A stretch of DNA of 64,000 nt from Candidatus Doudnabacteria bacterium (GTDB taxonomy: Bacteria > Patescibacteriota > Doudnabacteria > UBA920), in contig JARLHZ010000039.1 of the NCBI GenBank assembly GCA_031291995.1, positions 18,380-82,379 on the forward strand. The letters run 5' to 3'. Of this stretch, positions 7,330 to 44,616 are shown piece after piece. Under the pieces are notes generated by a model. The model was not told the DNA's origin. It did not search any database and was given only the letters and a program-made list of their open reading frames with translations. The translations under genes and the position numbers were made by a program. The number at the start of each line of letters is the position of its first letter. Position 1 is the stretch's first letter.

Positions 7330-8694
7330 TTAAAATGGTATCCCGATTGTATCAGTAGCCTCGGCGATATCCGCCTTTTTCGGCTGTTTAACAAGCTCCT
7401 TTTGCATTTCAGTTTTTTGTTCGGCGCTTAGCTGATCAAACTCCTCTAAGTCCTGGCGGGACTTTACCTGTAAGTGTTTGTCCATTTTTATAACTTTTTC
7501 GCTAACCTTCAATGCCATTTCATTAAATCCAAGCAGTTTGATGCCTGCCAGGGAGCGGACGCGGGACAGGGCCACGTAGCCCATACCATATTCAAAGGTC
7601 TTGCTTAAATCGATTTCCGCACAGTCCAAGCTCATCCCTTGGCTTTTATGAACAGTAATGGCCCAAGCCAGTCGTAGCGGCACTTGGCTGATTGAGGCTA
7701 ATATTTTCCTGCCGTCTTCAATCTTCCATTTTTCAGGATAGGCGATAATCACCTTGCCGTGAACAGTTTTAATAATTGGGTAGCCGCTGTCTTTGTCAAA
7801 ACCTGTTACCGTACCCAGCGTACCGTTAACATAGCCCAAATCAAAATTATTCTTTACGAACATAACCACGGTACCGGTTTTTAATACCAGCCGTTCAGGT
7901 GCCAGGCAGCTTTCTCTCAGCGTTTCCACCAAGTGTGGAATGCCTTCAGAGTACATTTGGTAAACTGATTCCTTGCCTTTTAATTTAGCCAGCTCAAACT
8001 GGTTATAAGCGTCTACGTTGCTGTTGTGGGTATGCAACTTAGTGGGCTTAATCTTAAAACTTACCGGCTGATTGATCCGTTCAGCGAGTACGGCTTTGGT
8101 ATCCATTGTAGTTCCGTTACGGCGAATGTCGTTTAATACCCGTAAAAATCTTTTATCATCTTGGCGGTATTGCTCTTCCAGATAGCAAATTTTGATGTCC
8201 ATATTTTGCCAGATTCCAGACTCAGTCACAAATCTGCCGTCCTCCCTGGCAGTCCTTGTTACGGGCGGCAGTTGGAAAAAATCCCCGCATAGGATAGTCT
8301 GGATGCCGCCAAAGGGCGCGGCGCTTTCCTTAAATTCTTTGCAGATTCTGTCCACCAGATCCAGCCGACTGGCATTGAGCATGGAGATTTCGTCGATTAT
8401 TAAAACCTTGGCGTATTTTATCCGTTCCCACAGGTGCTCTTTTTCCGTCAGTCTCTCTATCTGCTCATCGGACAGGTTCTGCTCAATGCCCATGCCGCAC
8501 CAGGAATGAATGGTGCGACCGTTGATATGCGTTGCCGCGATGCCGGTAGAGGCCGTTATCCCCGGATCAACATCATTGTGTTTCAGGTAATTTATATATT
8601 GGTTCAGCAAAAAAGTCTTGCCGCAGCCGGCGGGGCCGGTGAGGAAGACGTTATATCCAGACTTTAACATTTCTAAGGCTTGGGGTTGGGTCAT
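7330..8694 (-). CDS. PIF1/RecD-like SF1 DNA helicase
   Basis: Walker A GPAGCGKTFLL, Walker B LIIDEISML, motif ITVHKSQGMSLD. Confidence 0.8.
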   Translation of the reverse strand: MTQPQALEMLKSGYNVFLTGPAGCGKTFLLNQYINYLKHNDVDPGITASTGIAATHINGRTIHSWCGMGIEQNLSDEQIERLTEKEHLWERIKYAKVLIIDEISMLNASRLDLVDRICKEFKESAAPFGGIQTILCGDFFQLPPVTRTAREDGRFVTESGIWQNMDIKICYLEEQYRQDDKRFLRVLNDIRRNGTTMDTKAVLAERINQPVSFKIKPTKLHTHNSNVDAYNQFELAKLKGKESVYQMYSEGIPHLVETLRESCLAPERLVLKTGTVVMFVKNNFDLGYVNGTLGTVTGFDKDSGYPIIKTVHGKVIIAYPEKWKIEDGRKILASISQVPLRLAWAITVHKSQGMSLDCAEIDLSKTFEYGMGYVALSRVRSLAGIKLLGFNEMALKVSEKVIKMDKHLQVKSRQDLEEFDQLSAEQKTEMQKELVKQPKKADIAEATDTIGIPF

Positions 8695-8760
8695 AAATTG
8701 GTTGTCTTTGTCTGTGTGGAATTAATTATATCGTTTTAAGGATGGAGGATTTTTATACTG

Positions 8761-8863
8761 GCCTACAAGCAATCACCCTACATAGGATTTCAAACGTTTC
8801 CTGCCCAGGCGATATATGGAGCCACCAGCAAATTCACGCAGCGATTTGTATGTAGGGTGGGAG
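8761..8863. repeat. ~100-nt structured direct repeat, copy B
   Basis: Same-orientation copy of 7201..7312. The two copies bracket the helicase gene. Confidence 0.75.
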
Positions 8864-8994
8864 TAAACAAGGTGTTAATATTACTTGGAAATTCCTACAA
8901 AGCGAGTCTTTGAAATTTTGGCTGGTTATGATAGTCTTATAGTATAGATTTTCGTCGAAGGCCCGTCCTTTTTGGCGGAGAAATGGTTTCAGAG

Positions 8995-9037
8995 CAATCT
9001 GAAATAGGCGAAAACGCGGACCCCTTAACAGGGGTCT
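8995..9037 (+). terminator. Rho-independent terminator module (ATAGGCGAAAACGC + GACCCCTTAACAGGGGTC + T-run)
   Basis: 9-bp GC stem followed by TGTTTTTTG. About 80% identical to the module at 10473..10517. Confidence 0.65.
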
Positions 9038-9245
9038 GTTTTTTGTGAGAGTGCTGGTGTTGGTGTCACTGAGTGAAGTATCCTACCCTGCTCATTACGG
9101 GCTACAATCGTCCGCTCATAGCGGGGAGGTGGTAATTCGATTACAAAATGGAAAGGAATCAGTTTTACAGGGGTGTCAGCGGAAAAATATCGGGTAGAGT
9201 CCTGGCTATGCCGATTGTCTGTTTTGTACCAGGCATAATTTAAAG

Positions 9246-10382
9246 TTAATGTTTTTTTTCCGGTTTCATGAACCCGGAGAAGTTTTGCGAGTTCACGCCA
9301 CCCAATTCTTTCCGGCCATTTAAATCTTTAACGAAAATATTTTTTATTTTATCGGTCAAAGAGCGTTCTTTCCATTTGAATTCAAACCCGTCCACAAGCC
9401 CATCGGAAACTTCAATAAGGTCTATTTCTTCGCCCTTGTAAGAGCGCCAGAAATAGTGTTCGGCAAAGGCTCCCAGCGCCTCATTTCGCTTCTTCCTTTC
9501 CACGACGCAGAAGTTTTCCCAGAGCTGGCCCAGGTCCTGACGTCTGTCCAACTGAGTGAAATCGTTTATAATGGCATTGCGGATGCCGAGATCGTAAAAA
9601 TAATATTTTTTTTGTTTGATAATGGATTTTCTTTTGTTGGTAAAGTAGGGCTTTAAGGAAAAAATGATGTACAGTTTTTCCAGAATATCTAAATAGCTGG
9701 TCACGGTTTTGGTGTCAAGTCCCACAATGGTTGCCAGCTCGTTCATAGATACCTGGCCGCCCAATTGCAGAGCCAGGGCTTTTAAGATATGTTCCAGCGA
9801 GCGGGGGTTCTTTATATATTCAATGTTCAGCACGTCTTTAAACAGGTAATTGGTTGCAATATTTTGGATGATATTTCGGCGCGTTTCATCGGTATGAGCC
9901 GTTACAACTTCCGGGTACGAACCATATACCATGAAGTTGTTTAATTCAAATAAGCCTACGGCCCCGGCTTCGCCAAACGAGATGGGGTACATATTATAAG
10001 AAAAGTACCTGCCGGTTAAAGGTTCGTTGACGGTATTGGAAAGTTCAAAAGCAGAAGAACCCGTGGCAATGATTTTCAGTTTGGGCAGCTCGTCAAAAAT
10101 TACTTTCAGCTTGATGCCGATGTCTTCTATTCTCTGGGCCTCGTCAACAACCAGCAAATCAATATCCGCAAATTGCTTAACCATGTCGCGGGAAGGCCGG
10201 TTAAGTTTTTCCTGGTCGTCGATAAAATCTCCGTTTATATAGGTGCTCTTGGCGAAGCGGTCTAAAAAGTGTTTGACTAAAGTTGTTTTCCCTACCTGCC
10301 TGGGCCCGTAAATTATTAAAATTTTGCGATCCCGAAGGTTTTGTGAAATTTTTTCCTCTAAATATCGCTTTATTTCAGGCAT
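9246..10382 (-). CDS. AAA+ ATPase of the DUF4143 (COG1373-like) family
   Basis: Walker A GPRQVGKTTL, Walker B LLVVDEAQRI. About 378 aa, the typical size for the family. Confidence 0.75.
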   Translation of the reverse strand: MPEIKRYLEEKISQNLRDRKILIIYGPRQVGKTTLVKHFLDRFAKSTYINGDFIDDQEKLNRPSRDMVKQFADIDLLVVDEAQRIEDIGIKLKVIFDELPKLKIIATGSSAFELSNTVNEPLTGRYFSYNMYPISFGEAGAVGLFELNNFMVYGSYPEVVTAHTDETRRNIIQNIATNYLFKDVLNIEYIKNPRSLEHILKALALQLGGQVSMNELATIVGLDTKTVTSYLDILEKLYIIFSLKPYFTNKRKSIIKQKKYYFYDLGIRNAIINDFTQLDRRQDLGQLWENFCVVERKKRNEALGAFAEHYFWRSYKGEEIDLIEVSDGLVDGFEFKWKERSLTDKIKNIFVKDLNGRKELGGVNSQNFSGFMKPEKKH

Positions 10383-16150: not shown

Positions 16151-16411
16151 CTAACCGTAAAGTTCAGAGTGGGTATCAATATTAACAAATTTTACATAAT
16201 TTTCTTCTTGCTTAAAAATTGCCCGATAATCACCGCTTACGTTTATGCTTCGGCAGCCTGGGTAAGCTTTGTGAACATCATGATTATGAAGTATGGAGTT
16301 AAAGGGGTTTTCCAAAAATAAAATCAGCCGTTCTTTAAAAGCCATCTGAATGGTTTTTGGCATCTGCGAGTATTTTTTCTGGAAATGCTTGTGATAAAAA
16401 ACACTTGTCAT
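16151..16411 (-). CDS. RelE/ParE-family toxin (type II TA)
   Basis: 86 aa, ...HKAYPGCRSINVSGDYRAIF. 4-bp ATGA overlap with the upstream antitoxin gene. Confidence 0.7.
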   Translation of the reverse strand: MTSVFYHKHFQKKYSQMPKTIQMAFKERLILFLENPFNSILHNHDVHKAYPGCRSINVSGDYRAIFKQEENYVKFVNIDTHSELYG

Positions 16412-16689
16412 GTTAGAGTATCCAAGTACTCTATGGCATCTTTGGCGTTAGTAAAACCCGGGGACAGGTTTTTACCTTTCTTAATGTCTCTTAAGGCTTG
16501 TTTAACTTCTTTGTCAGTTTTGTAATTAAATTTAGGTTCCGCAACCACGGTCACATCCATTTTGCGGTTGGCATAGGCCTGTGTGGCCATCTTAAGCACA
16601 AAAGCCAAAGGCACACCCTCCTCTTTTGCCCGTTTCATGGCCTTTTGTTTTAAGGCTTTATCGATTTTAAAAATAACTTGGGAGTTCAT
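16408..16689 (-). CDS. antitoxin (RelB/DinJ or RHH-like) partner
   Basis: 93-aa charged protein immediately upstream of and overlapping the toxin gene. Confidence 0.6.
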   Translation of the reverse strand: MNSQVIFKIDKALKQKAMKRAKEEGVPLAFVLKMATQAYANRKMDVTVVAEPKFNYKTDKEVKQALRDIKKGKNLSPGFTNAKDAIEYLDTLT

Positions 16690-17004: not shown

Positions 17005-17158
17005 TATCCTCCTAAAAAAAGCCGCCAAGCGTTGCTCGGCGGCATTCGGGTATATTGTAGCGCATCTATGAAAACTGTCAAAAATTTGTTTTATTGCAAA
17101 GTTTGTACTTTTACTTCATAATTAAAGCGTTAATAAGAGAAATTCAATTTAAAAATAT

Positions 17159-17344
17159 TTGTTGTTTGTAAAATATATGGACGCTAAAAATATCGAGAAA
17201 AAGGTTAAAGAGCTACAGACTGTAATGGCCGGTTATAAGCATGAATTGAGTAGTTTGGAAAAAACTTTGTATAGGTCGATTTCGGATTATCAGAAAGCTA
17301 TAGACGAGGAAAAGCTTAAAGATATCAGAAGTAGTCTGTCTTAA
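17159..17344 (+). CDS. small coiled-coil protein, first gene of a 3-gene operon
   Basis: 61 aa. Promoter-like TTGCAA-17-CATAAT upstream. Stop is 1 nt from the next start. Confidence 0.5.
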   Translation: MLFVKYMDAKNIEKKVKELQTVMAGYKHELSSLEKTLYRSISDYQKAIDEEKLKDIRSSLS

Positions 17345-17345
17345 T

Positions 17346-20300
17346 ATGCCATCAACTTTGTTACAATCAGAAAGTTCTCTTGAGGGTCATAGGGAATCAG
17401 CTCAAATGCCGGAGGCGCAAAGTCCAGAAATATCGGACCACGACGAGGCAAGTTTGCGGAGAATGGTTGATCAGGCAACAGCAGAAATCTCCTCGGTCCA
17501 GGCAAGAATAGATGCTATCTCTGAGGATCGTTTGCAGAAAGCCTCATCGGGCCTGGCCCCGGAAAGGGCGGGCCGTATATTTTCGACCGGTGGTTTTGCT
17601 GACCGGATAAGTAAAGTCAAAAAGGAAATTTCGGATTTAATAAATCGTACAAAGAGCCAAATTGGTGTATTGCTTAAGCCTTCATCGGAAATTGAAACCC
17701 GACAATCAAAAAATGAACCAGACTCCGACTCTGAACATAAAGCCGCGTCTCCCCAAAGTTTGGAGCATTATATGGAAGCAAACAAGCTTGGCGGAATGGA
17801 AACGGTGAAGGAAAAAGCCCGTCTCGCGCAGTTGCGCTTACAAAGGATAAAGAATCCGGAAAAGGTTTTGGCTTTGGCTCATTATTTGGAACAATTCTCT
17901 GTAAACACGGAATTTAAAAATCTCAAGATTTCAAAGAATGAACGAAAAAAAATCGAAGAAGAGGAGGGGAAGTTAAAAAAACAAGGATTTAATATCAGGG
18001 GTCGGTATACTGATGATGAAGAAGAAGACAAGGTGAAACTATGGGCAACCAAGGAATCTCCATATTCATTTAACACCCACGATTCAAAATTTCTTGCCAA
18101 AGACCTTGCTGAAATGGTTAGCTCGCCAAACGATCCGGTTAGGATGTTTGAATCCTTGCGCAATCTCGGATACCACCTTGAGATTATTAAAAACTGGACG
18201 TTCCATGACAACGATAAGCTGAAAGAGTTTTTTAAAAATCCCGGTGCGTTGGCATTTTTGGAAAAGGTAAAAACGTTCGGGGGAGAGGGGCTTAAGAAGG
18301 ATCTTTTTAAGGGCTATGACCCAATACTCAGACTTTCGGAATTGGCTACTAAAGATTCTGCCGAGCATATTTTTACTCCGGAGTCGGAAAAAAATTTGGA
18401 GAAGGTCTCCGCAATATTGGGTAAGCCCGTGGAATTTGCCGATGTCGAAGATTGGATTGAACTCTCCCGGGGAGACACCCTAATGGAAATTTTTTCCACG
18501 TTGAAAAAGATGCCGGGCAGTGACATTTCCACTAGTGACTGGTTAAATAAACTGCACATAATTAAGGAGAGAGGTGTGGAAAATGAGGTTGTGGAGCTTT
18601 TGAAAAAAGGGTTTTCCGAACGAATGCTTGGGAAATTTTATGGCTATGGTCCGGTTGAAGGCGAAAAGGCCACCGAATCTCTAAAGCAAGCCCTAGAAGT
18701 TTTTAAATCCAACCCGCAATTACAAAAATTCGTGCTTGGGGCGGCAAAAATCTTTGGAATTGAAGATCCGTTAGGGAAAGAGAATCTGGAAAAATTTTGC
18801 AAATTGGAAGAACAAGTTCCGGAAGCCGGGCTGGCATTTGAGTTTTTGTTGGGGATTGGGTTAAAAGGCCAGCCATATGAGTTGCGTGAATTTTTTGGTG
18901 AGCCGGAAATTTTCTTCAGAAATAGGAAATTATTTCAGCGGATGGAGCAACCGCAGGTTAGGCAAGTTATTACTTTGCTGGCAGAATCCGGGCATGAGTT
19001 AAAAATGGATACCTTGTCAGCCGACTTTTATAAAGTGGATATTATTATCGCCGGTGGATTAACTGAGGCTGTGGCGCGATGTAAAGATTTTCCGGGAATG
19101 GCTGATTTTATTATCGGTCACGCGGAGCTTATTAAGGATATTACCAAAAAAGAACTTGCGGAATATCTAAATCAAATTTTATCAGGCAGTGAATCGAAAT
19201 CTATCAGGGACAGGCAGATGGTCCGCGGGGAAATGATGGGTACAGTTTTATCTCAAGGCAGATATGACGTGCTTGCTAAAGTCCTATCAGCCAAGGGAGA
19301 GCTTACCCCAGAGCATACGGAAATAGCTGAACGTGTGGAAAAATTTGTCGATACTTACAAAATTGGAAACAAAGGCCGTACCATAGTCACATTGCTGGCA
19401 ATGAGGGAATATCGCGAAGGTGAAAATTTGGGTGGTTTATTGGAAAGAATCGGTAAAACCTTGGTGGGTTATCAAAAATTATTGGAACAAAAATCGGCGC
19501 ATCATATTCCAGCGGGGCTTCGGGCCTCTATTGGAATGGAATATGAAATAACCAACAGCACAGCTCAAGCGTATTTAAACTCCAATAAGAATTTTTTGGA
19601 GAATGATATGCAGGATGTTTCCCGTTTTGCCGGCGTGGGAAAAGGCAAGGATGCGGTTTTTGAAATCGCAACAAAATCCACTGATAACCCCTACGCAATG
19701 CTTTTGGAGTTGCAGTTGTTGCAGGATTTGGAGTTTATTGATTTTAATTTTAGACGGGAAGGCTATGAAAAAGGTAGCCGCGGTTGTCATATAACAGTTG
19801 GAGGTGAACATGGGCTCAAAACAAATAATAATGCCAATTTTTTACAAAACACTTTAATGATGAGCGGCTGGGGCGGTATTAATGCTGGCCGAAAGGTAGA
19901 GCAGCTGAGCAAAGCGAGAAATGCAAATATTCGCCAGCGCGATACATACAGCACCCAAAAGGTATTTGAAAATTGCCGGCCAGCGGTGGAATTTAGGTCT
20001 TTATCCCTGGACACGTGGGAGCCCTTTGAGCGGACAGTGGAAACTTCCTATTACGGTGCGATAGCGGTTCAGGCTATGGATAAATATTTGTCGGGCTTAA
20101 AGCCGGCGGTGTTTTTCCAAAATTTTGAGACGCAATTTCCGAGGGGCGCGGAAGGCTTGGTCTCAATGCTAAAGGATGCAGGGATGGTTTCTCCCGATTT
20201 AAAGGACGAAAAAACGAAACAAATTATTTTTTTGTGGATGAAGCTGCAGGCAGGAGTATATGGCGCTTTGCAGGATCATAATGAGAATTTTTTGAACAAC

Positions 20301-20756
20301 GAAACGGGCGGTTATTTTGACGAAGATGGAAAATGGATAGATCCGAATGATTTTGGCGGTAATACGAATAAGGAGCGGTTTTTGGCGGTCAGCGGAGGCG
20401 AACAGGGGCTGCAGTCTTATAGTGAAAGTGTTAAAATTTCCCCCGCTGACCTTTTTGAGACCGCGACCGAGGGGCTGGCAAATCGTTGCACAGCCATAAC
20501 CAATCTTTTCATAAAACCGTCCTTAGAATCCGGCGGTGACGTAACAAATGCTACGGCTAGTTTTGATACGACTAAAATCGGTCGAACCATTGAAAGTAGT
20601 GACACTCGGGCCAAATACCAATCTGTTTTTGAGGCCAAAGGGCAGACGAGGGAAGGGTATTATTATATTCAAGGGGGGAGTCAGAAAATGCTCCTTCATC
20701 GAATTCAGATAGAACTTTTGGAGTTTAATAAAGCTATGCAAAAAATAATAGAATAA
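17346..20756 (+). CDS. large (1136 aa) cytoplasmic protein of unknown function; C-terminal third may have an amidoligase/GS-like fold
   Basis: No signal peptide and an acidic, coiled-coil N-terminus. Motifs SIGMEYEIT ... VFEIATKST ... RGCHITVGGEHG resemble the E-x-E / H-x-H-containing strands of COOH-NH2 ligases. This is weak and unverified. Confidence 0.6.
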   Translation: MPSTLLQSESSLEGHRESAQMPEAQSPEISDHDEASLRRMVDQATAEISSVQARIDAISEDRLQKASSGLAPERAGRIFSTGGFADRISKVKKEISDLINRTKSQIGVLLKPSSEIETRQSKNEPDSDSEHKAASPQSLEHYMEANKLGGMETVKEKARLAQLRLQRIKNPEKVLALAHYLEQFSVNTEFKNLKISKNERKKIEEEEGKLKKQGFNIRGRYTDDEEEDKVKLWATKESPYSFNTHDSKFLAKDLAEMVSSPNDPVRMFESLRNLGYHLEIIKNWTFHDNDKLKEFFKNPGALAFLEKVKTFGGEGLKKDLFKGYDPILRLSELATKDSAEHIFTPESEKNLEKVSAILGKPVEFADVEDWIELSRGDTLMEIFSTLKKMPGSDISTSDWLNKLHIIKERGVENEVVELLKKGFSERMLGKFYGYGPVEGEKATESLKQALEVFKSNPQLQKFVLGAAKIFGIEDPLGKENLEKFCKLEEQVPEAGLAFEFLLGIGLKGQPYELREFFGEPEIFFRNRKLFQRMEQPQVRQVITLLAESGHELKMDTLSADFYKVDIIIAGGLTEAVARCKDFPGMADFIIGHAELIKDITKKELAEYLNQILSGSESKSIRDRQMVRGEMMGTVLSQGRYDVLAKVLSAKGELTPEHTEIAERVEKFVDTYKIGNKGRTIVTLLAMREYREGENLGGLLERIGKTLVGYQKLLEQKSAHHIPAGLRASIGMEYEITNSTAQAYLNSNKNFLENDMQDVSRFAGVGKGKDAVFEIATKSTDNPYAMLLELQLLQDLEFIDFNFRREGYEKGSRGCHITVGGEHGLKTNNNANFLQNTLMMSGWGGINAGRKVEQLSKARNANIRQRDTYSTQKVFENCRPAVEFRSLSLDTWEPFERTVETSYYGAIAVQAMDKYLSGLKPAVFFQNFETQFPRGAEGLVSMLKDAGMVSPDLKDEKTKQIIFLWMKLQAGVYGALQDHNENFLNNETGGYFDEDGKWIDPNDFGGNTNKERFLAVSGGEQGLQSYSESVKISPADLFETATEGLANRCTAITNLFIKPSLESGGDVTNATASFDTTKIGRTIESSDTRAKYQSVFEAKGQTREGYYYIQGGSQKMLLHRIQIELLEFNKAMQKIIE

Positions 20757-20761
20757 ACTAT

Positions 20762-21196
20762 ATGGTAAACAATAATCCCGGACATCGATTATATGGAGAA
20801 ACGTTCACTCAGGAAGCGCCTAAGCCAAATGCCGCGGCCTATGAGGTTTTATTGCGCCATTTAAAAAAGCAAGATAGCTTTGAAGGTGAATCGCACGAAA
20901 TTTTAAATGATATTTATAAAGCCTTGTGGGATAGTGAAGCGGAAGCGGATGCTGCTTTAGTCACGATGGAACAAAAGGGGTTGGTTAGCCGCGAAGATAC
21001 TCTGATGTTAATTGTGTTACTCGCCATTTCCCGGACTTTGGGACCCGATTTGGATTTTTTACGGAGGGCAATTATAACTGGTAATTTTAGAGCATCTACC
21101 GTCAACGAAATGATTAAAGCTTCCGGGTTGGATGATTCCTTAGTGAGTTATTTGCAAACAATCACCGATAAGTTTACCGCAGAAATAAAAGAGTAA
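20762..21196 (+). CDS. hypothetical protein, third gene of the operon
   Basis: 144 aa, 5 nt downstream of the large ORF. Confidence 0.5.
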   Translation: MVNNNPGHRLYGETFTQEAPKPNAAAYEVLLRHLKKQDSFEGESHEILNDIYKALWDSEAEADAALVTMEQKGLVSREDTLMLIVLLAISRTLGPDLDFLRRAIITGNFRASTVNEMIKASGLDDSLVSYLQTITDKFTAEIKE

Positions 21197-21332
21197 GCAT
21201 ATAAAAACAGCCCATTAAATTTGGGCTGTAATTATATTTGGTTATACTTCTATGACTACCGGCAATACCATCCACCTTCGCCAAGGCTTCGGCGGACAAG
21301 TGGGCGCCTATGGTGGTGGAGTTATTATCGCC

Positions 21333-23174: not shown

Positions 23175-23458
23175 TTTGTTAGTGTGTAGTGGTTAGTGTG
23201 TAGTGTGTAGGTGACTAAACCTAACCAAAGCTATTCTGTCCAGGCAAAATGCTTGGACTTATTTATTAAGTTTTGTTATTTAACCCGCTCCAAGTGGTTT
23301 GTAACCGACCCGGACCGGATTCCAAATTAACAAATGACAACCAAAAAGGGGATTTTTAACTGTCATCTGGCAATTGATTTTTGCTTTATTTCAGAGGGAT
23401 TTTTAACAAGTAGTTTAATTATATCACGTCGTGATTTTTTTGTCAATTTTTTTTGTAA

Positions 23459-24877
23459 GCATGTCATTTAAAATTCAAAAGTGCACTAGTTTAAAGCCCA
23501 AAACTGCACTTTTTTGCTAAATATGCCCCCGCAGGCTTAGGATATACGGTTAACCTTAATTAAAGAGAAAGGATAATCATATGCCCCAAGTCCACAAACG
23601 TTTGGAAGATGAAGCCGTCAGAAGAATTTTTAGCCAGTATGATTCTAAACAATTAACCCTGGAGCCTGCCTTAGCTCAACTTGGAATTAAGCGCCGCCGC
23701 TTTTTTGACTTACTAAAAGCCTACCGCGACAATCCTGCCGACTTTTCCGTGGCCTATGAACGTACCGCGCGGAAATTAATTTCAGACTCGGCCGAACAAA
23801 AAATTAAGGATGAATTGTTAAAAGAAAAAACTATGATCGACGACAAGTCTTTACCGATTAACTGGTACAACTATTCGGCCGTTCGAGATACGCTGAAAGA
23901 AAAACACAACATTACGGTATCAGTGCCAAGCATTATCAGCAGAGCCAAGGAACAAGGCTTTTACATACCTAAGCCGGAAAAGAAAAAACATAATCATGAA
24001 GTTATTACCAATTACCCCGGGGAGTTAGTCCAGCACGATGCTTCCCACCATCGCTGGAACCCCTATGTGCAGGCTACTTGGTCTGCCATTACCAGTATTG
24101 ACGACTATAGCCGCGTGCTTTTGTTCGGCGACCTGTTTGAACATGAAAGTAGCTGGGCGCATATTTCTTCAATGGAATCAATATGTTTAACCTATGGGGT
24201 TCCTTTAAAATACTACCTTGACCAACACCGGATATTTAGGTTTGTAAGGAACAGGGACATTAAGAGCAGATTTTTTAATTATCAGAAGTTTACCGATGAG
24301 GTTGACCCGCAGTTTAAACAGGTGCAGAAAGAATTAAATATTGATTCAACATACGCGCTCTCGCCTCAAGCTAAAGGAAAAATTGAGAGGCCATATCAGT
24401 GGTTGCAGGATAGAGTGGTTCGGCATTCTTCTAAAGACCACGTTACCAAGTTTACCGAGGTTCGGGATATTTTTAGAGACGAGGTTTTAAGGTACAACAA
24501 CCGACAAGTGCATTCCACCACCAAGGAAATTCCCATGATGAGACTGGAAGCGGCGCTTAACCAGAACAGGACAATGTTCAGGCCATTTAAAATTCCAAAA
24601 CCTTATGAGTCAACCAAGGACATTTTTTGTTTAAGAACTACCAGGACAGTTAATCATTACCAGAAAATAGCCTTACACAATTTAATGTTTGACGTCCCGG
24701 ATGTCAGACCAGGGCAGGAAGTTGATATACGTATCCGCCCGGAGCCGGAATCCGGCCAGGCTGAAATCAGAATTTGGCACAGCGGCAACCTTACGGCGAC
24801 CAAGACAATTCTGCTTAAAGATCTACCCGCAGTGCATCTTTGAATTTTAAAGAGTGCAGTTTTGAATTTTTCCTAAC
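23459..24877 (+). mobile_element. insertion sequence (~1.4 kb) with imperfect terminal inverted repeats and a 13-bp target-site duplication
   Basis: IRs AAAATTCAAAAGTGCACT (23470..) and AGTGCAGTTTTGAATTTT (..24869). Identical ATTTTTTTTGTAA at 23446..23458 and 24878..24890. Single transposase ORF inside. Confidence 0.75.
23581..24843 (+). CDS. DDE transposase (rve/integrase-core type; IS481/ISNCY-like)
   Basis: 420 aa. N-terminal HTH region, D (VQHDASHH), D (SIDDYSR) and E (AKGKIER) spaced as in the rve catalytic core. Confidence 0.7.
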   Translation: MPQVHKRLEDEAVRRIFSQYDSKQLTLEPALAQLGIKRRRFFDLLKAYRDNPADFSVAYERTARKLISDSAEQKIKDELLKEKTMIDDKSLPINWYNYSAVRDTLKEKHNITVSVPSIISRAKEQGFYIPKPEKKKHNHEVITNYPGELVQHDASHHRWNPYVQATWSAITSIDDYSRVLLFGDLFEHESSWAHISSMESICLTYGVPLKYYLDQHRIFRFVRNRDIKSRFFNYQKFTDEVDPQFKQVQKELNIDSTYALSPQAKGKIERPYQWLQDRVVRHSSKDHVTKFTEVRDIFRDEVLRYNNRQVHSTTKEIPMMRLEAALNQNRTMFRPFKIPKPYESTKDIFCLRTTRTVNHYQKIALHNLMFDVPDVRPGQEVDIRIRPEPESGQAEIRIWHSGNLTATKTILLKDLPAVHL

Positions 24878-24895
24878 ATTTTTTTTGTAAACAAT

Positions 24896-24982
24896 TGGTG
24901 GCCGAGGAGGGACTTGAACCCTCACGACCTTGCGGTCATACGCACCTGAAGCGTACGTGTATGCCAATTCCACCACTCGGCC
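24896..24982 (-). tRNA. tRNA-Leu (anticodon CAG), long variable arm
   Basis: GGCCGAG acceptor pairs with CTCGGCC. D-loop AATTGG. Anticodon stem TACGC/GCGTA with loop TTCAGGT. T-arm GAGGG/TTCAAGT/CCCTC. Closely resembles E. coli tRNA-Leu. Encoded CCA. Confidence 0.85.
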
Positions 24983-34494: not shown

Positions 34495-36579
34495 ATGATA
34501 AAAAAATTATTAACCAGACTTGGCATAGCGGGCGGAACTTTGGCGATTATTATTGCCGGGGCCGCGGCCTTTAGCGCGTTTGAGGCGCACGTAGTCAATG
34601 TGACGGCGTCCATCAACAACGCTTTAACGGTGCCGCAGGAGGCAAGCGGTATAAGCTTTGGGGCAATTTTTCCCGAAGAAGTCGCGCACCAGCCGCTGAA
34701 CGTCTCTTTGAGCACTTCGTTTTTGAACGAGTCGCGCGTGGACGACGTTTCGTACATGATTCGCCAAAAGCCGAAATGCGTGAGCGACACCGACCCGAGC
34801 GTGCATCCGCAGGTTACCGAACAAGGGGTGACTTTTGTTTGTCCGGCCGGCTCGCACCAAATGCCCCTGCTCTGCCCGTATTTGTCCAAGCATTTGGTAA
34901 CGGGAAATTGTAATCCCGACCTGCCGGTGGGCACCGAAGGCTCCTGCACCGGCATAGACGCGTTCCATGGCACGGCCAGCTCCACTTTGTGGACGGAAAC
35001 CGTAACCGAAGCCACCCAGGTAAACGGCCACCTTGTAAAAGGAGGCAATACCACCGACAACTGGGACATAGATTTGCACGCGCCCTGCTTTAAAGGAATG
35101 TGCGCCCAGGACAACGTAATTCCTGCCGACTTCCAACCCGACCCCAGCTTAGAAGGCCAAACCTTCGGCTGTGACCTTTGGGTGGAAGTTAACGGCATTA
35201 GCACAACAACGGAAACCGGGACCGGAACTTTAACCGTTACTAAAGTGGTTGTCGGCGGAACCAAAGTAGTTTCCGATTTTCCGCTGTTTGTTGACGGCGC
35301 ATCGGTGACATCCGGAGTTACCGCTACCACAACCGCGACTACCCATCAGGTCTCGGAAACTTCCGACCCCGATTACGTAGGCACCTTTAGCGGCGACTGC
35401 GGCTCAACCGGTCTAGTCACCGTCCCCCCCAACGGAAGTGCCTCGTGTACATTAACCAACACCTTTGACCCACGACCGGGAACTTTGACTATCGTCAAAA
35501 ATACAACCGGTGGCAACGGCACGTTTGACTTTACCGTCACGGGTGCTTCCTCATCGTCTCCAAGCATTACTACGGTAGGCGGTACCGGCACGACGGGTTC
35601 CATGACAGTTGGTTCCGGCACTTATACCGTATCGGAAACTGTACCGGACGGCTGGGCACTGGGCACGGCTACTTGTGATGATGGTACATCCTCATTAACG
35701 GATAATACCATCTCAAACATCAAGATTGCTCCAGCCAGCAATGTTACTTGTACGTTTAACGATAGTAAAAATACGGGAACTATTACAGTTTATAAAGTTG
35801 TAAACAACAATGGCTTAGGTACTTCCACGCCAGCGGATTTCCAGATGCAAATCGACGGTTCCAGTGTGGCGCAAGGAGCAACTACAACCGAAGCCACCGG
35901 CCTGCATACTGTTTCAGAAGCCAATGCCGGTCCCTACGTTACTTCCTTTAGTGGTGACTGTAACACCAGCGGCCAAATAACTTTGGCCACTAAGCAAGCC
36001 GCGGTTTGTGTTGTTACGAATACGTTTCCCATAGCAAGTTTAAAGATCGTTAAAACGGTGAATAATATTCACGGTGGCACCGCAGCCATTTCAAGCTTTA
36101 CCTATTTTGTAGGTTCAACCCAAGTACAAAATAATACAGTAACGAACTTCATCCCTGGAACTTATAATATTTCCGAAGGTGGGGTAAGGGGTTATAGTGC
36201 CACATTTAGTGGGGCGTGTAATGGTGTTAATTCCGTAACTTTGCACGCCGGAGATAACGTCGAATGTGACATAACAAATACCGATATTGCGCCGGTAATC
36301 AGTTTGAATCTCAATATAACCGGTACTGGAACAGCCACAACCAGTGACTTTAATATGTTCATTGATGGGACTTTCGTTCCGCAGAATAGTTCACAATCGG
36401 TGACTTCTAATGCCAGTCACTCTATTACTATTACCGGCAATAACCATACATCAGGCTATACAAATTCCGGAGTCACTGGTACATCAGCATTTGGCGTAAG
36501 TTGTCCCGCATCTCTGCCAGGTAATGTAACTTTGACTCCTGGTGATTCAATCTCGTGTACTATAACGGAAACCCATTAG
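34495..36579 (+). CDS. secreted surface protein, paralogue 1 of the SAFEAHVVNVTA family; conserved Cys-containing N-domain plus prealbumin-like/Cna-B-type repeats
   Basis: N-terminal K-rich start, hydrophobic core and AAAFSAFEAHVVNVTA junction resembling SipW-cognate signals. Conserved blocks FGxxFP(E/Q)E, CPAG..MPLLCPYLSK, WDIDLH.PCFKG.CAQD, GCDLW.EV.GI. C-terminal repeats with GxYTVSE..P.GW.L...C. Confidence 0.8.
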   Translation: MIKKLLTRLGIAGGTLAIIIAGAAAFSAFEAHVVNVTASINNALTVPQEASGISFGAIFPEEVAHQPLNVSLSTSFLNESRVDDVSYMIRQKPKCVSDTDPSVHPQVTEQGVTFVCPAGSHQMPLLCPYLSKHLVTGNCNPDLPVGTEGSCTGIDAFHGTASSTLWTETVTEATQVNGHLVKGGNTTDNWDIDLHAPCFKGMCAQDNVIPADFQPDPSLEGQTFGCDLWVEVNGISTTTETGTGTLTVTKVVVGGTKVVSDFPLFVDGASVTSGVTATTTATTHQVSETSDPDYVGTFSGDCGSTGLVTVPPNGSASCTLTNTFDPRPGTLTIVKNTTGGNGTFDFTVTGASSSSPSITTVGGTGTTGSMTVGSGTYTVSETVPDGWALGTATCDDGTSSLTDNTISNIKIAPASNVTCTFNDSKNTGTITVYKVVNNNGLGTSTPADFQMQIDGSSVAQGATTTEATGLHTVSEANAGPYVTSFSGDCNTSGQITLATKQAAVCVVTNTFPIASLKIVKTVNNIHGGTAAISSFTYFVGSTQVQNNTVTNFIPGTYNISEGGVRGYSATFSGACNGVNSVTLHAGDNVECDITNTDIAPVISLNLNITGTGTATTSDFNMFIDGTFVPQNSSQSVTSNASHSITITGNNHTSGYTNSGVTGTSAFGVSCPASLPGNVTLTPGDSISCTITETH

Positions 36580-40612: not shown

Positions 40613-43009
40613 ATGAACCAAAAACACCCGAAAATTAAAAAAGGATTGGATATCGGGGAGCCGAAAATCGGACGGTTGGTTTTAGCCGTGCCGAAACCTA
40701 AATCTAAGGCCAAAAAATTTGTGGCCATGGAAGACATCAGGGCTTCATTTTTAAACTCAGATAGAGATAAAAAGAAAATAGTAAAAATTACTGGTGTCAT
40801 TCCGAGCGCGGCCGGGGAATCCCTTATACCAAAAAAATTATCAAGCGTCGCGAAAACCCCCGAATTAATTCCGGAAATTGACACGGTAAAACCGGAAACT
40901 AAGCCATTAGTTACGACCCAGCCGTTTATTAGCAGTCTGATTATCCGGCAGAAATCGCGGATTAAACTTTTGCCAAAAACATTTACGGCTTTTAAGCTGG
41001 CCGCCTTGACTGTGTTATGCCTAATTGTGAGCATCCCGGCCATGTCGGCTTTTGAAGCGCATGTGGTAAACGTTACCGCCCAGTTAAAAGAAATTACCCC
41101 GCCAACATTAACGCCGCCCGGGAGTTCCGTGGCCTGGGACGACCATAACGGCGGCACTAATTTGTCCGGAAATATTAATGTGGTAATGAGTGATGGTTAC
41201 ATAGACGCGTCGGATATTTATTATACTTTCGGCACCGGCACCATTGACCCGGGCACAGTGCCCAATCCCGTTTGCGGCCAGACCGGGCCAAACGGCGGCG
41301 GGGGAGACAAAACCCTGCCCCAGCAATTAAGCATAAATGCCGATACCGTAATAAAAGCCATTGCCTGCGATGGGATAACCGGTACTGCTCACAGCAGTTA
41401 CGTAAACACCAAAATTTATTCCTTCGGCCAGCCGGTGCAAAATCTGGTCATTAATGAATTCCTGCCAAATCCGACCGGAACCGCGGCGGGCAACCAGGGC
41501 GTATCGGGCGGGCATAATACCGGCAACGGCGGCGAGTGGGTGGAACTCTACAACAACGGCACCTCCACCATAGATACCGACGGCTTCGTGCTGTATGACG
41601 ATTTTGTTCCCACAACCACTCCAGCCAGCCAAACCTGGACCACCAACAGCGATTTTAATTCCGTGCCTCCGCCCATAGAGGGCAGTACAACCGTAAGCGG
41701 AGGCAGTGTGTTATTGACTGCCGGTTCTTTGAGCGGGACATTTGAAAAAGTTTTTGACATCGGCACCAATAAAAAAGCTTCCTGGGGCAATGTTACTATG
41801 GCCAATACCATTACCGATCCGGCCGCTTTGGTTTGCCTGTCCGCGGCTACGTCCGACGACGGCGTTAATTTTACGCCTTACGTCAGCTTGGGCTTGAATT
41901 CGTGCGCCACTGCTTCCTCAACCTCCATCTCCTTGTCCCTGGCCTCCCTGCCCCAGTCGCGCTTTATTAAATGGCAGGCCGCTTTTAGCCGAAACGATGC
42001 GACCAAGGCGCTAAGTTTGAATTCATTGAGCATCAATTACAGTTTTGTTGATTACAATACTTATCACGAATTGGTTATTACGACCGACAACACCAATAAC
42101 ACGTTGGCGCCGGGGACAACTATTATGGATCCGGGCGACTTTTTGGTGGTGTACCGCGACGGCAATCCCAATTTTGATTTGGACTCGCAGGTTAATGCGG
42201 CATCTTTGTATGACGGCCATTTGTATTTGGGCGCGGGACTAATAGACAGCCATGCCTATGACCTGGGCGGGTCCGTGCCGGTTGGTAATTCCATAGCCCG
42301 CATTCCGAACGGCAGCAGCAACTGGGTCGACCCATGCCCCACGCCCGGCGCGCCCAATACGGCGGACTGTTTAATTCCGGCTAATGTTTCCACCACCACG
42401 CCGGACAGCCTGGCAGACGCCACCTCAACGCCCGATTCAACCTCAACGATTATCAGCGATACCGGCGCGACTTCAACTCCGGACACCGCAACTTCCACGG
42501 ATATTAGTGCTGGCGGCAGCAGCGTCACGGCAACTTCAACTGATGCCACCTCGACGCCCGAAGCTGACGGTGCGTCCGATACTACCATTTCCACTTCCAC
42601 GGACGCATCCGCACAAATCCCGCCGCCGGATAATTCCACAACCACGACTGTTTCAACTACTTCTCCCGATTTATCTACAATTACCACTCCGACGCCAACA
42701 CCAGGGACAACGGTACCCGGCAATAATATAGATCAGGCTCCGGCTGATAATTCTTCCGGTGTTTCCACGCCGCCTGTTTCTCCGCCGCCTGTTTCTCCGC
42801 CGCCTTCATCGGATCAAAGCGCACCGGCCAATCCGCCGGTTGACAATTCCGACTCCTCCAAACAGCCCGATGCCATAACCCCGCCGCAGCAAAACCAACA
42901 GCCCGCGGTTACCCCCGCCCCCACCTCCTCCGGCGGCGATGGCTCGCCTCCGCCTCCTCCGCCTGCCGATCCGACACCAGCCACCGCGGATTCATCTTCA
43001 GGCAGTTAA
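40613..43009 (+). CDS. surface protein, paralogue 4: cytoplasmic N-extension, TM with SAFEAHVVNVTA motif, lamin-tail-like domain, P/T/S-rich tail
   Basis: MSAFEAHVVNVTAQLKEI follows a 120-aa N-region that contains a repeat-derived segment (GVIPSAAGESLIP). LVINEFLPNP...EWVELYNNG matches the LTD fold. Confidence 0.75.
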   Translation: MNQKHPKIKKGLDIGEPKIGRLVLAVPKPKSKAKKFVAMEDIRASFLNSDRDKKKIVKITGVIPSAAGESLIPKKLSSVAKTPELIPEIDTVKPETKPLVTTQPFISSLIIRQKSRIKLLPKTFTAFKLAALTVLCLIVSIPAMSAFEAHVVNVTAQLKEITPPTLTPPGSSVAWDDHNGGTNLSGNINVVMSDGYIDASDIYYTFGTGTIDPGTVPNPVCGQTGPNGGGGDKTLPQQLSINADTVIKAIACDGITGTAHSSYVNTKIYSFGQPVQNLVINEFLPNPTGTAAGNQGVSGGHNTGNGGEWVELYNNGTSTIDTDGFVLYDDFVPTTTPASQTWTTNSDFNSVPPPIEGSTTVSGGSVLLTAGSLSGTFEKVFDIGTNKKASWGNVTMANTITDPAALVCLSAATSDDGVNFTPYVSLGLNSCATASSTSISLSLASLPQSRFIKWQAAFSRNDATKALSLNSLSINYSFVDYNTYHELVITTDNTNNTLAPGTTIMDPGDFLVVYRDGNPNFDLDSQVNAASLYDGHLYLGAGLIDSHAYDLGGSVPVGNSIARIPNGSSNWVDPCPTPGAPNTADCLIPANVSTTTPDSLADATSTPDSTSTIISDTGATSTPDTATSTDISAGGSSVTATSTDATSTPEADGASDTTISTSTDASAQIPPPDNSTTTTVSTTSPDLSTITTPTPTPGTTVPGNNIDQAPADNSSGVSTPPVSPPPVSPPPSSDQSAPANPPVDNSDSSKQPDAITPPQQNQQPAVTPAPTSSGGDGSPPPPPPADPTPATADSSSGS

Positions 43010-43019
43010 CAAACCAGTA

Positions 43020-43125
43020 TCATTCCGAGCGACCCTGAGGGAGCCGCCATCGGCGGCGAGCCGAAGGGGAGCCGAGGAATCCCTTAACTCTGATAATAAG
43101 TTTAATGTTAAGGGATCCCTCCGCT
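43020..43125. repeat. dispersed palindromic repeat, copy 3 (CATTCCGAGCG...GAGGAATCCCTTAAC / GTTAAGGGATCCCTC)
   Basis: Variant of the CATTGCGAG family with a 15-bp terminal hairpin. Confidence 0.6.
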
Positions 43126-44616
43126 CCTCAACAATTCCACTACAGAAGGAATTGTCTCGTCGGTCGGGATGACAGAGAATATAATCAAATGATACCTTTG
43201 TTCAAACATCATCAATTGCTAAAAAAAATCGGCCTGACCGCCCTTACAATTTTGCTCGTGGCCGGCGGCAGTATTTGGCAGCAGCGGGTCTTGCAGGTCA
43301 ACGCCGCGGTTCAGGTTTTGCTGGTCAGCCGCACGGCCATTGCGTTTGGTAATGTCTTTCCGGGGCAGGATCCTTCGGAAACCTACACCGTGCAGCTGGA
43401 TACGTCGAGCAATGGCGCAACATATACAACCGGCCTGACGCCGTTGCCCGGTTTGCAAAATTTATGTCCGTTTTTAAACATCAGCAGTATAGATTCGCCG
43501 GCCGAACCGGACACTTTGGGAGCAGCCACGCTCAAACGTCCCGGTGACACTGTAGACAATTGGCAGGTCCAGTTAAGCGTTCCTGGCATAAAAGGCGAAC
43601 TGTCGCAGGACCACGCCGGCGGCATAATTGTCCAGGGCGGAAATTTCGGCTGTAAAATTACCATTACCACAACTACCGATCCGGGAACGATTATAATTTG
43701 CAAAAACAGCGTGGGCGGCACCGGTACTTTTAACTTTACCGGCGATTTGGGAAAATTTTCCATCCAGACTTCTTTGCCGGCTAAAAATAACGGAGTCAGT
43801 TCAAATGGCCAGCAAACCGACCCCTGCAGCCAACCTCCCTGCCCGGCATCCGATGACCATACCACGGGGAGTAACAGCGGCATTGATGATAAAACCAAAT
43901 GCATTACTAATACCACCGTCACCAACTACAACAGCTCAACAATCATAAACGTGCAAAATACCGGCGCTGGCAGCGGCGGCAATGTTATTGGCACCAATTC
44001 CGGCGACGTCAACGGCGGCAAAAATACCAGCGGCAGCGCCACCAGCAACAGCTCGGTGACCACTTACGGAAATTCCATTAATTCCTCGGTGACAACCGGC
44101 GGCAGTAACGGCAGCGGCAACCAAATTTTTGCCAATCTCCAGTCCGGCAGTTATACCGTTTCGGAAAGCTCAAGTACAAATTGGAGCCTGTCTTCATTGA
44201 CCTGCAAAGATCCGGCCAACAATTCCATGGTGTCAGCCAGTTCCGCGAAAATACAGCTGGATTCCGGCGAAACGGTAATTTGTACTTTTGTAAACGAGCA
44301 AAATACCGGAAAAATTATTATCCGAAAAAAAACTGACGGGGGCAACGGCAGTTTTGGATTTACCGGCAATTTGGGTCAGTTTAATATTACGACCGCCTCC
44401 GGCCTGGGCAGCAAGACCTTTTCCGGACTAACACCCGGCGTTTATACCGTTACCGAACCGGCCGACCAAAAAGGCTGGAGTTTGACTGGTTTGACCTGCA
44501 GCGATCCGGGCGGAAACAGCCAAGCCAACAACCGCAGCGCCATTATCCGCCTGGCGCCGGGGGAGACCGTGACTTGCACGTTTACCAATTCAAAAAAAGG
44601 TAAATTGGGCTCGTAA
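43105..44616 (+). CDS. secreted surface protein, paralogue 5 (degenerate N-domain, SGGN-GDVN-TSG module, prealbumin-like repeats)
   Basis: Retains AIAFGNVFPGQDP and CPFLNIS...DNWQVQLSVPGIKGE blocks. C-terminal repeats GVYTVTEPADQKGWSLTGLTCSD. Confidence 0.7.
   Translation: MLRDPSAPQQFHYRRNCLVGRDDREYNQMIPLFKHHQLLKKIGLTALTILLVAGGSIWQQRVLQVNAAVQVLLVSRTAIAFGNVFPGQDPSETYTVQLDTSSNGATYTTGLTPLPGLQNLCPFLNISSIDSPAEPDTLGAATLKRPGDTVDNWQVQLSVPGIKGELSQDHAGGIIVQGGNFGCKITITTTTDPGTIIICKNSVGGTGTFNFTGDLGKFSIQTSLPAKNNGVSSNGQQTDPCSQPPCPASDDHTTGSNSGIDDKTKCITNTTVTNYNSSTIINVQNTGAGSGGNVIGTNSGDVNGGKNTSGSATSNSSVTTYGNSINSSVTTGGSNGSGNQIFANLQSGSYTVSESSSTNWSLSSLTCKDPANNSMVSASSAKIQLDSGETVICTFVNEQNTGKIIIRKKTDGGNGSFGFTGNLGQFNITTASGLGSKTFSGLTPGVYTVTEPADQKGWSLTGLTCSDPGGNSQANNRSAIIRLAPGETVTCTFTNSKKGKLGS

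Follow-up and report, generated by a model that had tools for sequence, protein, structure and literature searches.

Introduction

What might a bacterium with a tiny genome be doing with a protein of 1136 amino acids (aa) in which curated models recognize no domain, and with the two small genes that are packed against it? We address this question for a three-gene cassette on the + strand of a 64,000-nucleotide (nt) stretch of a Candidatus Doudnabacteria genome (contig JARLHZ010000039.1, positions 18,380 to 82,379, assembly GCA_031291995.1), the whole of which we call the window. Its three co-directional open reading frames (ORFs), at 17159-17344, 17346-20756 (1136 aa), and 20762-21196 (144 aa), are separated by gaps of 1 nt and then 5 nt; an operon with this spacing had been proposed by a first-pass annotation made from the sequence letters, and its coordinates and strand were confirmed. 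These are real genes and not chance ORFs, because a Candidatus Doudnabacteria metagenome-assembled genome (MAG) has an NCBI protein entry identical to the large protein, and all three proteins have conserved homologues in the same gene order in other genomes. Searches against Pfam, NCBIfam, PHROGs, PADLOC, and PDB sequences gave no match for any of the three proteins, so that the large one is indeed domain-less in curated models, as first described, and the same curated-model searches run on its relatives returned nothing meaningful.

A large part of bacterial diversity falls within the Patescibacteria, or candidate phyla radiation (CPR), epibionts whose genomes are tiny and whose lineage-specific proteins mostly have no assigned function. 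The overall picture that we draw for this locus, with a rough probability of 0.55, is of a Patescibacteria-restricted cassette that encodes a modular soluble giant protein with a glutamine synthetase (GS)-fold ligase head, together with two dedicated companions, a mini-protein encoded upstream and a partner encoded downstream.

The C-terminal module

The evidence for this picture begins in the C-terminal part of the large protein, which comprises the following two features.

19308-20753, + strand: conserved C-terminal module, residues 655-1136, with a predicted divergent GS-fold core and a conserved C-terminal subdomain (HMMER family, AlphaFold2 model, Foldseek)
19488-20060, + strand: predicted catalytic core, residues ~715-905, five beta-strands (AlphaFold2 model, conservation in 124 sequences)

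The first-pass annotation had suggested looking at homologues, their neighbourhoods, and the predicted structure of this region. An exhaustive HMMER search with residues 571-1136 recovered 176 clusters at 50% identity. The module (~480 residues) is always C-terminal, within proteins of 1,000-1,850 aa, and it ends no more than 22 residues from the C terminus in all 134 proteins whose module end is complete. Wherever the source names the organism, the family is found only in Patescibacteria.

AlphaFold2 modelled residues 571-1136 from a 12-sequence alignment with a mean pLDDT of 83.7 and a pTM of 0.88. In a Foldseek search of the PDB, the top ~26 matches of this model are all GS-fold ligases (probability up to 0.99, E values of 7e-3 to 0.1), including gamma-glutamylmethylamide synthetase (GmaS; 9QUR), GS itself (9N4X, 5DM3, and 7EVT), and YbdK/GCS2 (1R8G and 1TT4). 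In the viral library BFVD, the best named matches are phage amidoligases (E values of 8e-4 to 6e-3, probability 0.96-1.0); the amidoligases of family PF12224 include those of Pseudomonas phage tf (gp21) and Cellulophaga phage phi14:2. With this model as its basis, we consider it very probable that the module adopts a GS-type carboxylate-amine ligase fold.

The five strands of the predicted core lie at residues 727-735, 772-775, 812-820, 862-868, and 878-887 (157-165, 202-205, 242-250, 292-298, and 308-317 in model numbering) and carry G730-x-E732-x-E734, D769/E773, H815, and E882-x-R/K884. Across an alignment of 124 sequences, E732, E734, E773, H815, and E882 never vary (100% conserved), position 884 is basic throughout (R in 65%, K in 35%), and D889, E892, N1068, R1102, and Q1109 are conserved in at least 97%. 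The three sequence stretches that had first been singled out as loosely amidoligase-like are present at residues 728-736 (SIGMEYEIT), 771-779 (VFEIATKST), and 812-823 (RGCHITVGGEHG), and four motifs are collinear among the module, the phage tf amidoligase (our motif reference, confirmed as PF12224), and YbdK from Escherichia coli.

G-x-E-x-E motif: phage tf FGFEVELE; YbdK TLGIELEMQ; window SIGMEYEIT
Second acidic motif: phage tf DGS..E; YbdK MLELAT; window VFEIAT
His motif: phage tf THLHMD; YbdK GQHVHVG; window GCHITVGG
E-x-R motif: phage tf VEFRG; YbdK TVEVRVMD; window AVEFRSLSLD

The PF12224 amidoligases thus share the motif order of the module, that is, G-x-E-x-E, D/E, His, and E-F-R. GS-type enzymes bind Mg/Mn-ATP, phosphorylate a carboxylate, and couple it to an amine. 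In the module, the invariant Glu-x-Glu, Glu, His, and Glu-x-Arg/Lys on five consecutive strands would bind Mg/Mn-ATP, and the module would activate a carboxylate as an acyl-phosphate and then create an amide bond between it and an amine. We lean towards the prediction that the module is catalytically competent, and a pseudoenzyme is disfavoured because of the degree of constraint on the module residues.

Within the same alignment, tryptophan occupies otherwise invariant glycine columns (residues 730, 820, and 1110) in ~9-10% of the sequences, which is the expected signature of genes that read UGA as glycine (code 25; SR1/Gracilibacteria) and were publicly translated with UGA as tryptophan.

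Several results weigh against the ligase assignment. No sequence-based method (Pfam, NCBIfam, PHROGs, or hhalign) recognizes the module as a ligase: Pfam gives no module match at E<=10, no ligase family is among the 25 listed Pfam families for 33 members (E<=1), and hhalign returns probabilities of 0.04% against tf gp21 alone, 0.5-0.9% against seven phage amidoligases (with a misregistered alignment), and 0.15% against E. coli YbdK, all with shallow templates (effective number of sequences [Neff] of 1-2.3 overall and 2.3 for the profile of seven phage amidoligases). Two scans of viral contigs yielded no diverse amidoligase set. On the structural side, the Foldseek E values are modest and the TM-scores low (0.2-0.35), the latter because of the large extra helical parts in the module model, and the motif equivalence is one of motif order and not of residue-level structural superposition. 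Finally, GAT-II, ATP-grasp, and AIG2-like genes, which form the context of the phage tf amidoligase, are absent from the window and from 40 related loci.

Since profile comparisons with genuine amidoligases are not significant, the module is a fold-level relative of amidoligases and not a member of Pfam Amidoligase_2 by sequence criteria. The amidoligase-like C terminus of the first-pass annotation therefore holds at the level of fold and motifs (Foldseek matches in the PDB and BFVD, invariant Glu/His/Glu), but not as a sequence or profile link to Amidoligase_2 or GCS2. Unlike the PF12224 amidoligases of phages, the module is ~480 aa long with an extra conserved C-terminal subdomain, is fused behind an N-terminal region of 140-1,350 aa, and was not found in phage or plasmid records. 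Compared to YbdK and GS, its motif spacing is shorter, no GS N-terminal beta-grasp domain was recognized, and the window protein has a giant multi-region architecture and dedicated small partners. We know of no experimentally defined substrate for the Amidoligase_2 family, and the same is true of the module.

The N-terminal region and the mini-protein

The remainder of the large protein and the gene that precedes it are laid out as follows.

17346-17765, + strand: N-terminal leader, residues ~1-140 (alignment of 10 relatives)
17766-19307, + strand: central region, residues ~141-654, fast-evolving and repeat-like (sequence comparison; residues 571-654 helical in the model)
17177-17344, + strand: mini-protein, 55 aa, charged, with a coiled-coil-like composition (homologues and gene caller start)

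The conserved segments of the leader are MP[ST]TLEQ, EYDExGL, and GL...IF..GGFA.RI in the alignment of 10 relatives. When the whole protein was compared to 5.8 billion proteins by a word-indexed search, the only relatives recovered were P0002 (43% identity over residues 6-569) and P0003 (37%), both of which align over residues ~6-570 only; the leader is thus common to proteins whose C termini differ or are unknown. The closest module-holders (P0004-P0009 and P0013) also share the N-domain of the window protein, and beyond these an iterative search connects only some N termini of the module family, in which the part preceding the module measures 140-1,357 aa and falls into ~17 groups that are not linked by BLAST. 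These N-terminal regions resemble fast-evolving repeats, and P0002 internally repeats segments of the central region.

In P0002 (GCA_016307145.1), the shared N-domain is followed by an unrelated C terminus of ~500 aa with a GSx10DxD motif, by which it may be a nucleotidyltransferase of the pol-beta type; this C terminus has no match among PDB sequences. A constant N terminus with an alternative C-terminal head was seen in this one organism, whereas elsewhere the N termini vary and the head is constant. A second departure from the common architecture is P0137 (HMY80904.1, Candidatus Absconditabacterales), which has a complete ART-PolyVal ADP-ribosyltransferase domain (57 bits) at residues 60-268, upstream of the ligase module. 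P0137 is the sole family member with a second recognizable domain, which the window protein does not have. The P0002 locus (L002, 1-6264) also holds three paralogues of the mini-protein (57, 55, and 55 aa) and a 279-aa protein with a leader-like start and a Gly-rich C-terminal half; the leader of the window protein is weakly similar (14.5 bits) to this 279-aa protein, which follows a mini-protein paralogue.

The modular construction of the large protein is also visible in its gene. The gene is split exactly at the boundary between N-domain and module in two separate lineages, into products of 668 and 663 aa in L005 (3120-7130) and of 878 and 773 aa in L006 and L035 (7259-12322 in L006), and the L006-type split recurs in independent assemblies, which suggests genuine gene fission and not sequencing error. 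As these fissions fall exactly at the N-domain/module boundary, we conclude that the large protein is built from separable units. It is also predicted to be soluble, since neither the large protein nor 116 of its 117 full-length relatives contains a hydrophobic 19-mer or transmembrane segment, which upholds the first description of a protein with neither signal nor transmembrane segments. Most members have no other recognizable enzyme domain in the N-terminal region, and the most plausible role of this long variable part is to choose or position a substrate that is a macromolecule (protein or peptide), or to set a cellular location.

The mini-protein gene is real, as first proposed, but its start differs from the one first given: it probably begins at ATG 17177 (55 aa) and not at TTG 17159 (61 aa), because homologues and an independent gene caller both begin there. 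Homologues of the mini-protein abut homologous large genes with 65-67% identity in L002 and L005 and 44% in L004, and genes of 55 aa are called abutting upstream of the large gene in L058 and L059. The mini-protein accompanies P0002, where the leader is present and the ligase absent, and it is missing where the leader is missing (L014 and the P0007 locus). In more distant loci, the abutting upstream ORF carries the motif [YF][KRQ]xx[LV]xxL in 7 of the 13 cases that have an upstream small ORF, compared to a background of 1.6% among 2,703 small ORFs; the corresponding Fisher p value of ~6e-10 is optimistic because the motif was defined after the sequences had been inspected. The mini-protein is therefore a companion of the N-terminal leader and not of the ligase, and it probably binds or stabilizes the leader. 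A fusion of the mini-protein to the N terminus of giants that have no separate one was considered and set aside, as the segment concerned, S-[YF]-[LI]-x-x-L-[DE], also occurs in giants with a separate mini-protein.

The downstream partner

20762-21196, + strand: partner, 144 aa, acidic, predicted six-helix protein (29 homologues, AlphaFold2 model)

All 29 homologues of the partner stand alone, with lengths of roughly 90-155 aa (135-155 in most), and come from Patescibacteria wherever the organism is named. The AlphaFold2 model (pLDDT 81) shows six helices after a disordered N terminus of ~20 residues, and it is this disordered part that bears the most conserved motif, Y-I-Y-G-E-T-F-S-x-E-A-P-R-P, in which Glu13 is near-invariant. 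Other conserved segments are L-N-D-x-Y-K and S-R-T-L-G-P-D-L-x-F-L-R, Lys53 is invariant, and a fold search against the PDB found no structural relative.

The partner gene lies directly downstream of the module gene (gap of -3 to 13 nt) in 11 of 38 loci, as well as in three further window-type loci (L058, L059, and an ENA locus); within the analysed loci it was never found elsewhere, being always next to a module gene, and it is missing beside P0002, the relative with a different head. The partner, in sum, accompanies the ligase module in some lineages. It probably docks on the ligase head through its conserved disordered N-terminal motif, where it would act as a regulator, an inhibitor, or a substrate. 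The lineages without a partner include a large clade with module proteins of 1,630-1,776 aa and the SR1/Gracilibacteria/Peribacteria clade, and in partner-less loci the downstream genes are unrelated, for example, GreA-like or aquaporin-like. We looked for a partner domain fused inside longer proteins that have no partner and did not find one. Two facts count against the overall picture here: the partner is absent from ~27 of the 38 module loci, so it is not essential to the chemistry of the module, and its absence was paired with an alternative head in a single organism (P0002).

The broad GS-like ligase superfamily also includes PafA and Dop, which raises the question of a Pup-like tagging system, in which the GS-fold ligase would attach the partner or the mini-protein to targets, or modify the partner, as PafA does with Pup. 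The cassette has in common with pupylation that small proteins are tightly co-encoded with a member of this superfamily, and the strong conservation of the disordered partner motif, with its near-invariant Glu13, and the invariant Lys53 would fit such a role. We nevertheless hold it to be quite improbable: (i) PafA and Dop are outside the top 50 PDB fold matches; (ii) neither the mini-protein nor the partner has the conserved C-terminal Gly-Gly-Gln/Glu of Pup (GGQ/GGE), nor any conserved C terminus; (iii) the mini-protein tracks the leader and occurs with P0002, a non-ligase relative; and (iv) the partner is absent from most ligase loci, and no proteasome/Mpa-like genes were found near the examined loci.

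Distribution and genomic context

A scan of 185,579 species-representative genomes found 34 module loci, a lower bound given that the scan was pattern-limited and used one genome per species. The loci belong to Magasanik-, Nomura-, Falkow-, and Kerfeldbacteria, Paceibacteria, SR1, Peribacteria, and Gracilibacteria, and the three Gracilibacteria-class loci (SR1, Peribacteria, and Gracilibacteria) group together in the module tree. Third-party annotation (TPA) MAGs titled "uncultured Gammaproteobacteria" or "Bdellovibrionales" (L016, L020, L021, L026-L028, L030, L032-L034, L036, L038, L039, L041, and L043) nest among named Patescibacteria in this tree, and their titles probably reflect placeholder taxonomy. 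A tblastn search with the module against 50,697 phage and 72,556 plasmid records gave no match and hence no support for an origin in phages or plasmids. Neighbourhoods differ by locus, with chromosomal housekeeping genes in several, as the following examples illustrate.

Window: TrpRS, YafQ toxin-antitoxin pair, RNase J, insertion sequence (IS) element
L005: type IV pilus cluster
L006: pilins and a type IV secretion system (T4SS)-pilin gene
L014: RNase HII, TrmD, MurG
L058: S13-S11-S4-RpoA-L17 ribosomal operon

Beyond the two small genes, no recurrent neighbours or secretion genes were found; pilin-like genes are near the cassette in 5 loci only, and one T4SS-pilin gene is near that of L006.

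Housekeeping neighbours in several loci, and the fact that the closest solved structures (GmaS, GS, and YbdK) act on small molecules, would be in line with a metabolic ligase, for example, a synthetase of gamma-glutamyl-amines or peptide metabolites in the manner of GmaS, PuuA, or YbdK, in which the long N terminus would be a scaffold or localization device and the partner a regulatory subunit. We regard such an enzyme as improbable, since a fast-evolving, clade-variable, noncatalytic extension of 650-1,350 aa is unusual in genomes so reduced, no metabolic genes are consistently linked to the module, and the distribution is sparse, with at least 34 loci in the genomes scanned.

In the window, the borders of the cassette are marked by three candidate signals.

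17021-17043, strand not assigned: G+C-rich hairpin with T/A runs on both sides, at the 5' boundary of the cassette (pattern match only)
17094-17122, + strand: sigma-70-like promoter candidate, TTGCAA-17-CATAAT (a 9/12 consensus match, which is not functional evidence)
21207-21229, strand not assigned: bidirectional terminator-like hairpin at the 3' boundary of the cassette, 11 nt past the partner stop codon

By its pattern, the first hairpin may be a terminator for the upstream minus-strand toxin-antitoxin genes, and the promoter candidate sits ~55 nt 5' of the mini-protein ATG; the region has no more hairpin- and promoter-like sites than expected from shuffled sequence.

Directly upstream of the cassette, on the - strand (16151-16689), a YafQ-type toxin gene (86 aa, weak Pfam match to YafQ_toxin) overlaps a 93-aa antitoxin-like gene, and further upstream (7330-10382, - strand) lie genes for a PIF1-family helicase (454 aa) and an AAA_14/DUF4143 ATPase (378 aa). 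Downstream, an insertion sequence (23461-24982) has terminal inverted repeats at 23461-23495 and 24845-24879 around a 420-aa transposase-like ORF (23581-24843), which looks DDE/rve-like by eye, and abuts tRNA-Leu(CAG) at 24896-24982. No flanking repeats that could signal insertion were found around the cassette, the terminal inverted repeats belonging to the neighbouring IS only. Taken together, the helicase, the ATPase, the toxin-antitoxin pair, and the IS make this part of the window look mildly like an "accessory island".

This setting is what speaks for an antiphage cassette, or one directed against other mobile genetic elements, with a large sensor-effector and small accessory proteins: in the window, the cassette is flanked by the toxin-antitoxin pair and the IS, with the helicase and ATPase genes upstream, and the family as a whole is patchily distributed, variable in position, and fused to an ART domain in one member. 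Against this, PADLOC gives no match, the surroundings of other loci are ribosomal, cell-wall, and tRNA-modification genes and not defence islands, and no nuclease, NTPase, or other sensor domains were detected, so a defence function is very improbable in our view.

Elsewhere in the window, the 14-mer GTTAGTGTGTAGTG is exactly tandem-duplicated at 23178-23205, just upstream of the start of the RNase J gene (- strand, gene ending at 23174). An island of large predicted surface or adhesin proteins extends over 34495-60730. SpaA-like prealbumin-fold domains occur at 34495-36579 and 43105-44616, a lamin-tail domain at 40613-43009, and VWA and DUF11 domains at 58037-60730; YDG/MBG repeats are found in a 1402-aa protein (44930-49138), and a peptidoglycan-binding domain in a 1192-aa protein (53790-57368). 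The remaining genes of the window include no secretion system; UvrA, UvrC, and the large surface-protein island are found instead.

Discussion

The proposed cassette joins a soluble giant protein, whose head would be a GS-fold ligase, to one companion that follows its leader and another that follows its head. This arrangement is what makes an exported effector worth weighing, in a form resembling polymorphic toxins: the giant would be delivered to a host, a competitor, or a phage-infected cell, for example, by a relaxase-less T4SS, with the mini-protein as secretion chaperone or targeting factor, the ligase as exchangeable head, and the partner as immunity protein or meta-effector. ART-PolyVal domains are typical of proteins injected by phages and conjugative elements, and one member of the family carries such a domain. 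The enzymatic module is always at the extreme C terminus, the same N-domain is found with a different C terminus and no partner in P0002, the downstream small gene covaries with the head and the upstream small helical gene with the leader, and the cassette is patchily distributed in variable genomic positions. Its layout, with a small helical protein, a constant-N-terminus giant with an enzymatic head, and a small head-specific gene, is also analogous to that of Esx/LXG and Lap effectors and other polymorphic toxin cassettes with their targeting factors (PMC13622651), and relaxase-less T4SSs, the substrates of which are unknown, are common in Patescibacteria (PMC12102498).

Despite these parallels, we treat delivery as a tentative and rather unlikely alternative. 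No signal peptide, known trafficking domain (LXG, RHS, PAAR, MuF, or other, by Pfam), or consistently linked secretion genes, of a type VII secretion system (T7SS) or any other, were found in the family, and the window has none. The module evolves slowly, the three Gracilibacteria-class loci group together in its tree, and it has no match in the phage or plasmid records. Arrays of orphan heads or immunity genes were not seen, and the head swap is confined to one organism. In polymorphic toxin systems an immunity gene stands beside every toxin, whereas the partner accompanies the module in the 11 loci and the three window-type loci given above, with unrelated genes downstream in the others. The effector/immunity idea of the first-pass annotation would fit the covariation of the downstream gene with the ligase head, but it is weakened by the many partner-less module loci, and neither a secretion signal nor consistently linked secretion machinery was found. 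The family also differs from polyvalent proteins, which are encoded by phages and conjugative elements, in being chromosomal; the survey of polyvalent proteins by Iyer et al. (2017; PMC5512222) mentions neither glutamine synthetase nor CPR and uses "ligase" only for ATP-grasp RNA ligases.

Taken one step further, and with more doubt, the same observations could describe a patescibacterial family of signal-less giant effectors with exchangeable heads, exported to covalently modify host-cell proteins during epibiotic growth. Here the mini-protein would be a leader chaperone, the variable helical region would serve targeting, and export might proceed, for example, by a relaxase-less T4SS. The heads would be mostly a GS-type protein ligase, a nucleotidyltransferase-like domain in P0002, and an added ADP-ribosyltransferase in the SR1 member, and the head-specific partner of some lineages would be an immunity protein or meta-effector.

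Returning to the cassette with a GS-fold ligase head and two companions, we found no paper that links amidoligases or carboxylate-amine ligases with CPR, nor any description of the family. Neither the fold nor the presumed chemistry is new, in contrast to the family itself, its architecture, and its two companions. The family, which is confined to CPR, comprises at least 176 clusters (at 50% identity), and is unrecognized by curated models, is now placed in a known enzymatic fold with an intact catalytic constellation, which turns a "hypothetical giant protein" into a testable hypothesis of ATP-dependent amide ligation, with defined residues and candidate binding partners. Should the protein prove to be an ordinary metabolic ligase, the interest would be modest. 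If, on the other hand, it is a delivered effector or a protein-tagging enzyme, the cassette would be among the first molecular entry points to the question of how these bacteria manipulate their hosts, or themselves.

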